Part shown: positions 30,631-36,454 of the stretch, one piece after another
Layout of the letters: the number at the start of each line of letters is the position of its first letter
Numbering within the stretch: the first letter of the stretch is position 1
Assembly (NCBI GenBank): GCA_944387125.1
Contig: CALXDT010000105.1
Coordinates: forward strand, 220 to 64,219
Direction of reading: 5' to 3'
DNA from: an uncultured Oscillospiraceae bacterium
GTDB lineage: Bacteria; Bacillota; Clostridia; Oscillospirales; Oscillospiraceae
DNA length: 64,000 nt
Notes under the pieces: model-generated
Told to the model about the DNA's origin: nothing
What the model saw: only the letters and a program-made list of their open reading frames with translations
Databases searched by the model: none
Position numbers and translations under genes: made by a program

Positions 30631-30660
30631 TTGACGGAAGTTCCCGGGAAATGGTATAAT
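30631..30660 (+). promoter_or_regulatory. SigA promoter of pur operon
   Basis: TTGACG-18-TATAAT with extended TG. Confidence 0.8.
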
Positions 30661-30678
30661 GATGCAGGACACCAGAAA

Positions 30679-30751
30679 CCCTTATGACTGACGGATCAGT
30701 GGAGCACCACATGGAGTAAGGGCATATTGTTTTTTGCCGGCCGTCTGGGCA
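30679..30751 (+). ncRNA. ZMP/ZTP (pfl) riboswitch
   Basis: CCCTTA-TGACTGACGGA, GTGG..CCAC, GGAGTAAGGG, linker, GCCGGCCGTCTGGGCA; GACGG/CCGTC pseudoknot; upstream of purE. Confidence 0.92.
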
Positions 30752-30790
30752 CACTTCCCAAGAAAGGGTAAGTGCGCCCTTTTTGTTTTT
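30747..30790 (+). terminator. Riboswitch-controlled terminator
   Basis: GGGCACACTT...AAGTGCGCCC plus T-run, overlapping aptamer P3. Confidence 0.85.
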
Positions 30791-30808
30791 CTAAAAGGAG
30801 GAACACGC

Positions 30809-31303
30809 ATGAAAAAAGTTGGTATCGTCATGGGCAGTGACAGCGATCTGCCCATCCTGCGCAAGGCCATGGACACCCTGGCCTCCTTGGACATTCCCTA
30901 CGAATGCCATATCTATTCCGCACACCGCACCCCGGAGGAGGCCCGCAGCTTCGCCGCATCTGCCCGGAAGAACGGCTTTGGCGTCATCATTGCAGCCGCC
31001 GGCATGGCTGCCCATCTGGCCGGCGCCATTGCAGCCAATACGACCCTTCCTGTCATTGGCATTCCCTGTAAATCTACCTGTCTCGACGGCATGGACGCGC
31101 TCCTGTCTACGGTGATGATGCCCTCCGGTATCCCGGTGGCCACTGTAGCCATTAACGGAGGCGTCAATGCCGCTTTGTTGTCTGCGCAGATTCTCTCTGT
31201 GGAGGATCCGGATCTGGCGAAAAGGCTGGAGGAAAAGCGTGCCGCGGACGCGGCAAAGGTGCTGCAAAAGGACGCTGCCCTGCAGACAGAGCTGACCGTC
31301 TGA
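30809..31303 (+). CDS. purE: N5-CAIR mutase
   Basis: [33 protein letters not shown]. Confidence 0.97.
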
Positions 31304-31410
31304 TACTGTTTCTTGATGAAAGGATTTCCCTTTCATCAAGAAGGCACCGCCTTACGGCGGAAAGCCCCGGCGGGGGAGCCTGCCGGAATCATAAGGAGGA
31401 ATAATCGTTT

Positions 31411-32832
31411 ATGGGTGGCTTTTTCGGAGTAATTTCCCACAAGAACTGTATTTACGACGTGTTTTTCGGCACGGACTATCACTCGCACCTGGGCACCCGC
31501 CGGGCGGGACTGGCCTTTTATGACCATAAGGCAGGCTTCCAGCGGCAGATCCACAGGATTGAGAACACCCCCTTCCGCACCAAATTTGAAAACGACCTGT
31601 CCAAATTCACCGGCCATTCCGGCATCGGCAGCATTTCCGACACGGATCCCCAGCCGCTGCTGGTGCGCTCCCACCTGGGAATGTTTGCCATCTCCACCGT
31701 TGGCATCATCAACAACGCCGAGTCCCTGGTGGAGAAGACCTTTTCGGGACCGGGCAAGCAGATGATGGCCATGTCTTCCGGCAGCGTCAACGCCAGCGAG
31801 CTCACCGCCGCTTTGATCAACCAGAAGGACAATCTGGTGGAGGGCATCCGCTTCGCCCAGGAGACCATCGACGGATCCTGCACCATTTTGCTGCTGATGA
31901 AGGATTGCATCATTGCCGCCCGGGACCGGCTGGGACGGCTGCCGGTGCTGGTGGGCAAAAGCCAGGATGGCTTCTGCGTCTCCTTTGAGTCCTTTGCCTA
32001 TCACAAGCTGGGCTATGAAGACCACTACGAGCTGGGTCCCGGCGAAATCGTGAAGATCACGGAAAACGAAGTGGAGCAGCTGCAGGCGCCCGGGGACAAG
32101 ATGAAAATCTGCGCCTTCCTGTGGACCTATTACGGCTACCCCAACTCCAACTATGAGGGCAAAAATGTAGAGCTGATGCGCTACCGCAACGGCGAAATCA
32201 TGGCCAGGGACGAGGAAAAGAACGGCACCATGCCCGAGGTGGATTATGTGGCCGGCGTGCCGGATTCCGGACTGCCCCATGCCATCGGCTATGCCAACTA
32301 TTCCCACAAGCCCTTTGCCCGCCCCTTTGTCAAATACACCCCCACCTGGCCCCGCTCCTTTACCCCGGCCGACCAGGAAATGCGCAACCTGGTGGCCCAG
32401 ATGAAGCAGATCCCGGTGCCGGAATTGATCCAGGACAAAAAGCTGATGTTCGTGGACGACTCCATTGTGCGGGGCACCCAGCTGCGGGAGACGGTGGAAT
32501 TCCTCTACAGCAACGGCGCCAAGGAAGTGCATATGCGCTCCGCCTGTCCGCCGATTATGTACGGATGCAAATACCTGAACTTCTCCCGGAGCAATTCGGA
32601 GATGGAGCTGCTGGCGCGCCGGACCATCCAGAATCTGGAAGGTCTGGAAGGCCAGAAGCATGTGGCGGAGTATGCCGACAGCTCCACCCACCGGGGCCAG
32701 TGCATGCTCAAGGCCATCTGTGAGGAGATGGGCTTCGACTCCCTGGGGTATCAGTCTCTGGACGGCCTGCTGGAAGCCATCGGGCTGGATCGGGACAAGG
32801 TCTGCACCTACTGCTGGAACGGGGAAGAATAA
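31411..32832 (+). CDS. purF: Amidophosphoribosyltransferase (MGGFFG variant)
   Basis: VPDSG, VDDSIVRGT PRPP loop, four Fe-S-type Cys (KICAF, SACPP, CTYCW). Confidence 0.93.
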   Translation: MGGFFGVISHKNCIYDVFFGTDYHSHLGTRRAGLAFYDHKAGFQRQIHRIENTPFRTKFENDLSKFTGHSGIGSISDTDPQPLLVRSHLGMFAISTVGIINNAESLVEKTFSGPGKQMMAMSSGSVNASELTAALINQKDNLVEGIRFAQETIDGSCTILLLMKDCIIAARDRLGRLPVLVGKSQDGFCVSFESFAYHKLGYEDHYELGPGEIVKITENEVEQLQAPGDKMKICAFLWTYYGYPNSNYEGKNVELMRYRNGEIMARDEEKNGTMPEVDYVAGVPDSGLPHAIGYANYSHKPFARPFVKYTPTWPRSFTPADQEMRNLVAQMKQIPVPELIQDKKLMFVDDSIVRGTQLRETVEFLYSNGAKEVHMRSACPPIMYGCKYLNFSRSNSEMELLARRTIQNLEGLEGQKHVAEYADSSTHRGQCMLKAICEEMGFDSLGYQSLDGLLEAIGLDRDKVCTYCWNGEE

Positions 32833-34542: not shown

Positions 34543-35256
34543 ATGAACGTATATGAAACCAAAACGATGGAACAGCGGCTGGCGGGCAACCGCTACCCCG
34601 GGCGGGGCATCGTCCTGGGACTGACCCCCGACGGGAAAACCGCCGTGGCAGCCTACTTTATTATGGGGCGCAGCGTGAACAGCCGCAACCGGATCTTTGT
34701 GGAAGAGCCGGACGGCATCCGCACCCAGGCCTTTGACCCCGGCAAAATGGTGGATCCCAGCCTGATCATCTACCACCCGGTGCGGCAGCTGGGGCGGGGG
34801 CTGATCGTCACCAACGGCGACCAGACCGACACCATTCGGGAATTCCTGGAAAGGGGACAGCCCATGGAGCAGGCTCTGCGCACCCGGAAGTTTGAGCATG
34901 ACGGGCCCAACTGGACCCCCCGGATTTCCGGGCTGCTCAGCCCCGACGGCAGCTATAAGCTGTCCATTCTCAAATCCAACGACCCCGAGGGCAGCGGCTG
35001 CGCCCGGTTTACTTATGAATATCCCGGCAAGCCGGGGCTGGGTCACTTCCTGCACACCTATGTGTGCGACGGGGATCCGGTGATTCCCACCTTCCAGGGG
35101 GAGCCGGAGCGGATATGCATTCCTGAGAAACTGGATGATTTTACCGACGAACTGTGGAACAATCTGGACGCGGATAACAAAATTTCCCTGTTTGTCCGGT
35201 ACACGAATCTGGAAACCGGCGAATATGAACAGCGGATTATCAACAAGCACGGCTAA
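34543..35256 (+). CDS. Stand-alone IMP cyclohydrolase (PurO-like)
   Basis: YPGRGI, YFIMGRS.NSR, VTNGDQTD, TPRISG; precedes AICAR transformylase. Confidence 0.85.
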   Translation: MNVYETKTMEQRLAGNRYPGRGIVLGLTPDGKTAVAAYFIMGRSVNSRNRIFVEEPDGIRTQAFDPGKMVDPSLIIYHPVRQLGRGLIVTNGDQTDTIREFLERGQPMEQALRTRKFEHDGPNWTPRISGLLSPDGSYKLSILKSNDPEGSGCARFTYEYPGKPGLGHFLHTYVCDGDPVIPTFQGEPERICIPEKLDDFTDELWNNLDADNKISLFVRYTNLETGEYEQRIINKHG

Positions 35257-35269
35257 GGAGGAGATTATT

Positions 35270-36454
35270 ATGAAGGAATTTCAGCTGAAGTACGGATGCA
35301 ACCCCAACCAGAAGCCCTCCCGGATCTACATGGCCGACGGCTCTGACCTGCCTCTGACCATTCTCAACGGTCGTCCCGGCTACATCAACTTCCTGGACGC
35401 CCTGAACGCCTGGCAGCTGGTGAAGGAGCTGAAAGAGGCCACGGGCATGGCCGCCGCCACCTCCTTTAAGCACGTGTCGCCCACCTCCGCCGCCGTGGGC
35501 AAGCCCCTGTCGGAGGCTCAGAAGAAGGCCTGCTTTGTAGAGGATGTGCCGGGTCTGGACGCCAATCCCCTGGCCTGCGCCTACGCCCGAGCCAGAGGCA
35601 CCGACCGGCTGTGCTCCTTCGGGGACTGGGTGGCCCTGTCCGATACCTGCGACGCCCTCACCGCCAGCCTCATTGCCAGGGAAGTGTCCGACGGCGTCAT
35701 CGCCCCGGGCTATACCGACGAAGCCCTGGCCATCCTGAAGACCAAGCGCAAGGGCGGCTACAACGTGGTGGCCATTGACCCCGGGTATGTTCCTGCCGAG
35801 CAGGAGACCAAGCAGGTTTTCGGCATCACCTTCCAGCAGGGGCGCAACAACTTTACCATTGACCGGGATCTGCTGGGGAATCTGGTGACGGAAAACAAGG
35901 AACTGCCGGAAAGCGCGAAAATTGATCTGATCGTGGCGCTGATCACCCTGAAATACACCCAGAGCAACTCCGTCTGCTACGCCTGGGACGGCCAGGCCAT
36001 CGGCGTGGGAGCCGGTCAGCAGTCCCGGATCCACTGCACCCGGCTGGCCGGGAGCAAGGCGGACACCTTCTTCCTGCGGATGCATCCCAAGACCCTGAAC
36101 CTGCCCTTCCGGGAGGATCTGGGACGTCCCGGCCGGGATAACGTCATCGACGGCTATATCAACGGAAACGAAGAGGACGTATGCGCCGAGGGCATCTGGC
36201 AGAACTACTTCACCACCCGTCCGGAGCCTTTGACCCAGGAGGAAAAGCGCGCGTACCTGGACGGCATCACCGGGGTGGCCCTTGGCTCCGACGCCTTCTT
36301 CCCCTTCCCGGACAACGTAAAGCGTGCCAAGGCCTCCGGCGTCTGCTACATTGCCCAGCCCGGCGGCTCCATCCGGGACGATCTGGTGATTGAACAGTGC
36401 AACAAAATGGGCATTGCCATGTGCTTCACCGGTATGCGGCTGTTCCACCATTGA
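35270..36454 (+). CDS. purH: AICAR formyltransferase (PurH lacking the IMPCH domain)
   Basis: LKYGCNPNQ, FKHVSP, SFGD, GAGQQSR, SDAFFPF, QPGGS. Confidence 0.9.
   Translation: MKEFQLKYGCNPNQKPSRIYMADGSDLPLTILNGRPGYINFLDALNAWQLVKELKEATGMAAATSFKHVSPTSAAVGKPLSEAQKKACFVEDVPGLDANPLACAYARARGTDRLCSFGDWVALSDTCDALTASLIAREVSDGVIAPGYTDEALAILKTKRKGGYNVVAIDPGYVPAEQETKQVFGITFQQGRNNFTIDRDLLGNLVTENKELPESAKIDLIVALITLKYTQSNSVCYAWDGQAIGVGAGQQSRIHCTRLAGSKADTFFLRMHPKTLNLPFREDLGRPGRDNVIDGYINGNEEDVCAEGIWQNYFTTRPEPLTQEEKRAYLDGITGVALGSDAFFPFPDNVKRAKASGVCYIAQPGGSIRDDLVIEQCNKMGIAMCFTGMRLFHH

Follow-up and report, generated by a model that had tools for sequence, protein, structure and literature searches.

A deep clade of PurF homologs lacking the catalytic cysteine, most likely ammonia-dependent PRPP amidotransferases, in a purine operon of an Oscillospiraceae bacterium

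PurF, which contains an ammonia channel, serves as the textbook example of an N-terminal nucleophile (Ntn) glutamine amidotransferase. Within the window, by which we mean a 64,000-nucleotide stretch from an uncultured Oscillospiraceae bacterium (GenBank assembly GCA_944387125.1, contig CALXDT010000105.1, positions 220 to 64,219 of the forward strand), a purF-like gene stands in a purine operon, and its product has no cysteine at the N-terminus. What does such a protein do at the opening step of purine synthesis de novo, and where does its nitrogen come from? Genomic, sequence and fold evidence together make an ammonia-dependent phosphoribosyl pyrophosphate (PRPP) amidotransferase the most likely answer. 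We consider it probable that this bacterium actually starts the pathway with the product of this gene, an ammonia-using amidotransferase whose glutaminase half is dead.

The gene and its start

The features of the gene start are as follows.
31411..32832, + strand: Cys-less PurF-like gene (P0001), a single open reading frame (ORF) of 473 aa
31393..31399, + strand: Shine-Dalgarno (SD) sequence AAGGAGG of this gene, read directly, 11 nt before the ATG
31414..31416, + strand: codon 2, GGT (Gly), at the site of the Ntn nucleophile Cys1 according to alignment

Read from the sequence, the ORF opens ATG GGT GGC TTT TTC GGA, that is MGGFFG. An in-frame TAA at 31402-31404, three codons 5´ of the ATG at 31411, excludes an upstream extension or propeptide, and it likewise rules out a longer frame or another start that would expose a cysteine. 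The start described in the original prediction, MGGFFG with GGT as codon 2 behind a strong SD and without propeptide, was thus confirmed. Cys13, the earliest cysteine of the ORF, does not align with Cys1. The opposite strand of the gene carries an ORF of 907 codons, a shadow frame of the kind usual in G+C-rich genes.

Glycine and cysteine codons are one base apart, and the glycine could be due to a sequencing error at 31414 (GGT for TGT) or to decay of a pseudogene. The chance of such an artefact is practically negligible. Since MGGFFG opens 120 out of 120 closest public homologs, which come from independent assemblies, GGT is not a base-calling error, and the doubt raised at the outset about this base is removed. 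Against a decaying gene, the frame is intact, the ratio of nonsynonymous to synonymous substitution rates (dN/dS) is about 0.2, and many further residues have changed in concert.

A separate clade of PurF homologs

The protein scores 181.5 bits against the NCBIfam purF equivalog TIGR01134, well below the cut-off of 350, whereas canonical PurFs of its relatives reach 440-545 bits. A Pfam scan returned no family above threshold; the GATase_7 match stays at 19.5 bits against a cut-off of 25. Its best sequence match in the PDB is B. subtilis PurF (1AO0, 1GPH; E 8e-38 to about 1e-37), with residues 3-400 aligned. By these scores and the predicted fold described below, the protein is therefore a PurF homolog that has both domains of the complete fold and is atypical by sequence. 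Databases name its close homologs amidophosphoribosyltransferase; as TIGR01134 and Pfam both miss the clade, this naming goes by weak similarity only.

Exhaustive HMMER search yielded 709 cluster representatives at E < 1e-30. The full-length ones open MGG, MSG, MTG or MAG, and cysteine is never found in this place. In a quick maximum-likelihood tree, one branch divides Cys-less from Cys-bearing rows with a Shimodaira-Hasegawa approximate likelihood ratio test (SH-aLRT) value of 98; the tree omits the more distant canonical PurFs, of E. coli type and from archaea, and does not fix the root or the number of cysteine losses. Judged by these sequence comparisons, the gene belongs to a deep, separate clade and is not an ordinary PurF altered at a single residue.

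Three proteins lie near the split. P0251 and P0268 (342 and 290 bits to the purF model) keep Cys1 and LQHRGQ, but their glutamine loop is already short and the equivalents of Arg73 and Tyr74 are missing. In P0244 the cysteine position (position 2) is occupied by Ala, with LQHRG still present. Their sequences make them possible intermediates between canonical and Cys-less forms.

Close copies of the gene were found in Oscillospiraceae, Ruminococcus, Lachnospiraceae and Acutalibacteraceae. The original prediction's mention of similar N-termini in gut anaerobes is borne out by the MGGFFG homologs. Copies 67-71% identical occur in Coriobacteriia: Adlercreutzia equolifaciens, Atopobiaceae, Enorma and Thermophilibacter mediterraneus (L070, L074, L075, L076, L099). 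These are far closer than the relatedness of the phyla, which makes transfer between gut phyla likely. With few exceptions the clostridial and coriobacterial copies come from the gut or the rumen. Carriers in culture include Lawsonibacter sp. LCP25S3_E2, Adlercreutzia equolifaciens DFI.6.87 and Thermophilibacter mediterraneus. A more distant clade member (P0137, at L126:4882-6297), 42% identical and starting MSGIVG, adjoins a gene for the large subunit of archaeal DNA polymerase D (PolD). The neighbouring PolD gene places this copy in an archaeon, and the Cys-less clade therefore extends to Archaea.

Loss of the glutamine site

To describe the glutamine site, 36 diverse clade members were aligned with 10 canonical PurFs of related genomes; canonical residues are given in E. 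coli numbering. Two stretches of the gene are needed here.
31474..31488, + strand: DYHSH motif, residues 22-26, in place of canonical (Y/F)ALQH (alignment)
31627..31656, + strand: shortened glutamine loop GSISDTDPQP, residues 73-82 (alignment)

In the HMMER alignment, Gly2 pairs with Cys1 of mature B. subtilis PurF. All ten canonical PurFs carry a short propeptide ending ...HEECGVFG. Among the 36 clade members the Cys1 position is held by Ser in 13, Gly in 12, Thr and Ala in 3 each, Lys and Asp in 1 each, with a gap in 3 and no Cys at all. The rest of the site has changed as well. Leu27, directly after DYHSH, stands where canonical PurFs have Arg26. The equivalent of Arg73 is Ser76 (34 of 36 members) and that of Tyr74 is Asp77. 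Positions 97 and 128, corresponding to Asn101 and Asp127, are variable, and from the oxyanion pair Asn101-Gly102 only the glycine (Gly98) is retained. In every clade member the glutamine loop is 8 residues shorter than in canonical PurFs.

In characterized PurF, Arg73 makes a salt bridge to glutamine, Tyr74 forms together with Ile335 a wall of the channel for NH3, and the glutamine analogue 6-diazo-5-oxo-L-norleucine (DON) labels Cys1 (PMC7953260). The protein of the window has neither the N-terminal cysteine nucleophile of PurF, with Gly2 and no upstream extension instead, nor the Arg73, Asp127 and Asn101-Gly102 by which class II (Ntn) glutamine amidotransferases are recognized. The original prediction of a PurF missing its catalytic Cys1 was right about the cysteine and understated the extent of the change: the entire glutamine site has been replaced. 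As cited in PMC3261824, Mei and Zalkin (1989) found that E. coli PurF mutated at Cys1 loses the use of glutamine and keeps the use of ammonia.

Cys13, Asp22, Tyr23, His24, Ser76 and Asp79 are conserved polar residues specific to the clade, near-invariant and located at or beside former glutamine-site positions. For Cys13 (31447-31449), itself not part of the old glutamine site, the count is 28 of the 36 members. One might accordingly ask whether the N-terminal domain has been rebuilt for a new task, such as ammonium capture and deprotonation, metabolite sensing or use of a non-glutamine nitrogen donor, by means of Asp-Tyr-His-x-His, Ser76 and Asp79. Besides the conserved residues, the identity within the clade speaks for it, as it is nearly the same in the N-terminal domain (36%) and in the phosphoribosyltransferase (PRTase) half (41%). 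However, different residues occupy the nucleophile position, the domain has no recognisable hydrolase motif of a known kind, and Pfam offers only the sub-threshold GATase_7 match. We regard such rebuilding as rather unlikely. Stated as a specific site, it would have Cys13, Asp22-Tyr23-His24-x-His26, Ser76 and Asp77/Asp79 gathered round the shortened loop, where they would either trap ammonium at the old channel's mouth and deprotonate it or accept nitrogen from a donor other than glutamine; in this form, too, it seems unlikely. If true, the clade would be a mechanistically new class of phosphoribosylamine (PRA) synthase and not a PurF minus one activity.

The phosphoribosyltransferase half, fold and selection

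If the N-terminal half has lost its site, has the other half kept its own? The relevant features were located by alignment, the cysteines with canonical B. subtilis-type PurFs of relatives.
32455..32478, + strand: PRPP-binding loop DDSIVRGT, residues 349-356, followed by clade-specific Gln357
32110..32814, + strand: span of the four [4Fe-4S] ligand cysteines, C234 (32110-32112), C386 (32566-32568), C465 (32803-32805) and C468 (32812-32814)

The PRPP loop (D349, D350, S351, I, V, R354, G355, T356) is near-invariant in the clade and common to canonical PurFs; it has the acidic pair and small-residue PRPP-binding loop of type I phosphoribosyltransferases. The D285-S286-G287 turn and the flexible-loop residues K308, R315, S316, Q322, R325 and K332 are shared with canonical PurFs too, and within the Cys-less clade they are invariant or nearly so. 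C234, C386, C465 and C468 are kept in 34-35 of the 36 clade members and in all 10 canonical PurFs. The original prediction had called PRPP loop and Fe-S cysteines intact, and the alignment agrees. Directly behind the loop, Gln357 (32479-32481) is specific to the clade (35 of 36 members); canonical PurFs have Thr there (DDSIVRGTT).

An AlphaFold2 (AF2) model built with 37 clade members as input reached a predicted local distance difference test score (pLDDT) of 92.3 and a predicted template modelling score (pTM) of 0.90. It superposes from end to end on the PurF proteins of B. subtilis, Arabidopsis and E. coli with template modelling (TM) scores of 0.81-0.86 (0.83/0.86 for B. subtilis PurF 1AO0, 0.81-0.83 for E. 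coli PurF). The modelled protein thus has the two-domain fold of PurF, Ntn plus type I PRTase.

Overall dN/dS of the Cys-less purF is 0.17-0.24, with 0.19-0.35 for residues 1-230 (the N-terminal domain) and 0.12-0.22 for the remainder, dS being near saturation in the more distant pairs used. These ratios indicate that both halves are under purifying selection.

Operon position and co-occurrence with purD

Comparison of genomic context gives the gene a clear place. The Cys-less type lies between purE or purC and purM in seven genomes (G007, G008, G021, G028, G112, G031, G039). Canonical PurF occupies that identical slot in G212, a genome from the family of G112. The Cys-less gene is interchangeable with canonical purF in this operon slot.

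Presence of both PurF types was then compared with that of purD across 200 genomes of Oscillospirales with a completeness of 95% or more.
Cys-less type only: 59 genomes, purD in 58
Canonical PurF present: 126 genomes, purD in 123
Truncated canonical copy at contig edge: 1 genome, purD in 1
No PurF type: 14 genomes, purD in 2

Genomes devoid of any PurF type thus mostly lack purD as well (12 of 14). Seen from the other side, purD is missing from 16 genomes, and just one of them has the Cys-less gene. In the single-contig genome G209 the Cys-less type is the only one and lies about 3.5 kb from purD. Operon slot, interchangeability and co-occurrence with purD indirectly support formation of PRA by the Cys-less PurF.

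It might be objected that the protein makes no PRA at all and is a pseudoenzyme, a regulator or a phosphoribosyltransferase with another acceptor, PRA coming from elsewhere. In enterobacteria, PRA can indeed form non-enzymatically and through side routes (PMC7668255); an archaeal copy with Ser for Cys, Mlab_0150, was rejected as a PurF in a 2011 survey (PMC3261824); and the score of our protein falls below the purF equivalog cut-off. Nevertheless, every catalytic and PRPP-binding residue of the PRTase is kept, the operon slot is shared with canonical purF, and 59 near-complete genomes, nearly all with purD, have no PurF type but the Cys-less one, which is lost together with purD. An enzyme that does not make PRA is thus very improbable.

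Several congeners carry the Cys-less type and canonical PurF together, which means that the Cys-less form is a second enzyme type and not a local mutation. Where both types are present, canonical purF usually adjoins carA-carB (L020:2846-9261 in G007, L043 in G008, L045 in G021, L037 in G152). In G007, purC stands in front of purF-carA-carB, and this purine-pyrimidine cluster is separate from the main pur operon.

Glutamine could still be the ultimate donor if a separate glutaminase, the PurL-fused domain or another class I subunit, docked to the protein and delivered ammonia. Split amidotransferases with separate glutaminase subunits exist, the conserved N-terminal domain could be a docking surface, and the PurL of the operon carries a glutaminase domain. 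Yet among the operons compared only pur genes are conserved beside the Cys-less gene; no conserved non-pur neighbour was found there, and four stand-alone copies share no neighbour. A search for a partner glutaminase beside the gene in the operons and the four stand-alone settings yielded no candidate. PurL itself is the usual full-length fused phosphoribosylformylglycinamidine (FGAM) synthase (1819 bits) with no sign of an extra role. The earlier suggestion that PurL or another glutaminase feeds the enzyme thus finds no support in gene context, and we hold it to be quite improbable.

PurF content of this genome

Does this bacterium have a canonical PurF elsewhere? Its metagenome-assembled genome (MAG) comprises 2.13 Mb in 164 contigs and is 85% complete. 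Neither TIGR01134 nor the canonical PurF of a congener, used as query, detected a canonical PurF in it. The other class II matches in the MAG are GlmS (MCGIVG) and AsnB (MCSIMG), both of which keep Cys1, and weaker ones.

In congeners the canonical purF sits in a purC-purF-carA-carB cluster. Here purA and purB come after purC, while asnB and pyrG stand in front of carA; the two neighbourhoods are assembled, and neither contains canonical purF. A gene hidden in an assembly gap is for this reason disfavoured, with some residual doubt at the given completeness. Canonical PurF is likely absent from this MAG. PurL, CarA, PyrG, GlmS and AsnB of the MAG look intact, so the change is specific to the PurF step and glutamine chemistry is generally kept.

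A weak class II amidotransferase-like stretch was noticed in G000 in a 381-aa ORF that is truncated where its contig ends (C108:1-3331, L031). The adjoining 705-aa protein gives a weak match to glutamine synthetase and has a type III-like size.

Proposed function

From these data the following mechanism can be proposed. The N-terminal Ntn domain would no longer bind or hydrolyse glutamine, and the intact type I PRTase site would convert PRPP and free ammonia to PRA. The dead domain, part of the Fe-S-containing two-domain fold, would be kept by purifying selection as a scaffold that packs against the flexible loop of the PRTase. As for the entry route of ammonia, which we infer, the shortened glutamine loop and the lost channel wall at the Tyr74 equivalent may plausibly open the old pocket to ammonia from solvent. 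The ZTP riboswitch of the operon would tie expression to purine and folate status. For species with both types, it is a reasonable guess that labour is divided according to ammonium supply.

An ammonia-dependent PurF, as the original prediction had it, fits the genomic, sequence and fold evidence; the idea of a single substitution had to be abandoned, and ammonia is a donor that we infer by exclusion. This exclusion is one of several points that weigh against our proposal. The polar residues conserved in the N-terminal domain are not obviously needed by a mere scaffold. Many relatives keep both PurF types, which speaks against simple redundancy of the two. With the MAG at 85% completeness, there is some chance of a canonical purF in the missing 15%. 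Finally, the near-saturation of dS noted above touches the selection estimates.

Relation to known systems and significance

The closest characterized relative, B. subtilis-type PurF (1AO0, 1GPH; TIGR01134; EC 2.4.2.14), shares with the Cys-less protein the full-length two-domain fold, the four cluster cysteines, the PRPP loop, the flexible-loop residues and the position in the purine operon. The Cys-less protein differs in having neither Cys1 nor propeptide, in replacement of the Arg26, Arg73, Tyr74, Asn101 and Asp127 equivalents, in a loop 8 residues shorter and in forming a separate clade. It is a variant of the PurF-type enzyme. Our full-text literature search retrieved neither a description nor an assay of the clade. 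The nearest item is a remark on Mlab_0150 of Methanocorpusculum labreanum, a PurF-like protein with Ser for the active-site Cys, regarded in 2011 as a recent duplicate and probably not PurF (PMC3261824). Like our protein, Mlab_0150 is a natural PurF homolog without Cys1, and the present clade has an archaeal member in P0137; unlike it, Mlab_0150 coexists with a canonical copy as a presumed duplicate.

The engineered Cys1 mutants of E. coli PurF resemble the natural clade in loss of the nucleophile, and their behaviour as cited, ammonia-dependent PRA synthesis without use of glutamine, is the one proposed here. The mutants, however, are laboratory enzymes with one residue exchanged and the remainder of the glutamine site intact, whereas the natural clade has the whole site replaced and the change fixed clade-wide.

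Glutamine amidotransferases with ammonia-dependent counterparts are familiar from other pathways, AsnA versus AsnB and the single-domain NH3-dependent NadE being examples. The parallel is that one step is performed by a glutamine-hydrolysing or an ammonia-using enzyme and that some organisms hold both; the division of labour guessed at above would follow the AsnA/AsnB pattern. The difference is that in AsnA and NH3-dependent NadE the glutaminase domain is absent or the protein is unrelated, whereas the Cys-less PurF retains its dead domain. In this last respect it resembles two AsnB homologs whose Ntn domain is non-functional, beta-lactam synthetase and carbapenam synthetase. These are likewise class II homologs that kept the N-terminal domain after loss of the catalytic cysteine, but their chemistry has moved to a new reaction, whereas the context of the Cys-less PurF indicates that the PRA step is retained.

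The Cys-less type is the sole PurF in about 30% of the near-complete Oscillospirales genomes sampled. If our proposal is true, many abundant gut and rumen anaerobes begin purine synthesis straight from ammonium. This would bear on models of gut nitrogen flow, on those metabolic reconstructions in which the PurF step is written with glutamine as donor, and on the dependence on ammonia that is classical for rumen bacteria. The clade would also offer a natural experiment on the role of the glutaminase domain and channel when glutamine is not hydrolysed.

The purine operon and its riboswitch

The operon has the order purE, Cys-less purF-like gene, purM, purN, PurO-like gene, purH, purD and purL, behind a ZTP riboswitch. 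Apart from the purF-like gene, its features are listed below.
30631..30660, + strand: promoter-like TTGACG-18-TATAAT with TG extension, 11/12 in a consensus scan, a pattern match only
30674..30757, + strand: ZMP/ZTP riboswitch aptamer RF01750, 59.5 bits (gathering score 39) over the full length of the model
30761..30792, + strand: terminator-like hairpin (30761-30784), then T run GTTTTTCT
30810..31303, + strand: purE (N5-carboxyaminoimidazole ribonucleotide (N5-CAIR) mutase), TIGR01162 198.7 bits
32866..33918, + strand: purM, TIGR00878 428 bits
33915..34526, + strand: purN, TIGR00639 202 bits
34543..35256, + strand: distant PurO-like inosine monophosphate (IMP) cyclohydrolase, NF003167 54.5 bits where the cut-off is 150
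35270..36454, + strand: purH, 5-aminoimidazole-4-carboxamide ribonucleotide (AICAR) formyltransferase domain only, start approximate, NF005492 655 bits
36493..37758, + strand: purD, start approximate, TIGR00877 512 bits
37774..41463, + strand: fused purL, FGAM synthase that carries a glutaminase domain of its own, TIGR01857 1819 bits, full length

Since the riboswitch heads the operon, expression would be tied to the purine/folate signal ZMP/ZTP. The hairpin at 30761-30792 is likely its expression platform. The real start of purE is the ATG at 30810, preceded by an SD, and not the TTG at 30734, which overlaps the aptamer; the TIGR01162 match starts at residue 29 of the longer ORF. Similarly, the NF005492 match begins at residue 46 of an ORF starting at 35135, and the TIGR00877 match at residue 33 of an ORF starting at 36397. 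The final two purine steps are split (34543-36454) between a 237-aa PurO-like protein, which resembles archaeal PurO only distantly, and a PurH consisting of the AICAR formyltransferase domain alone.

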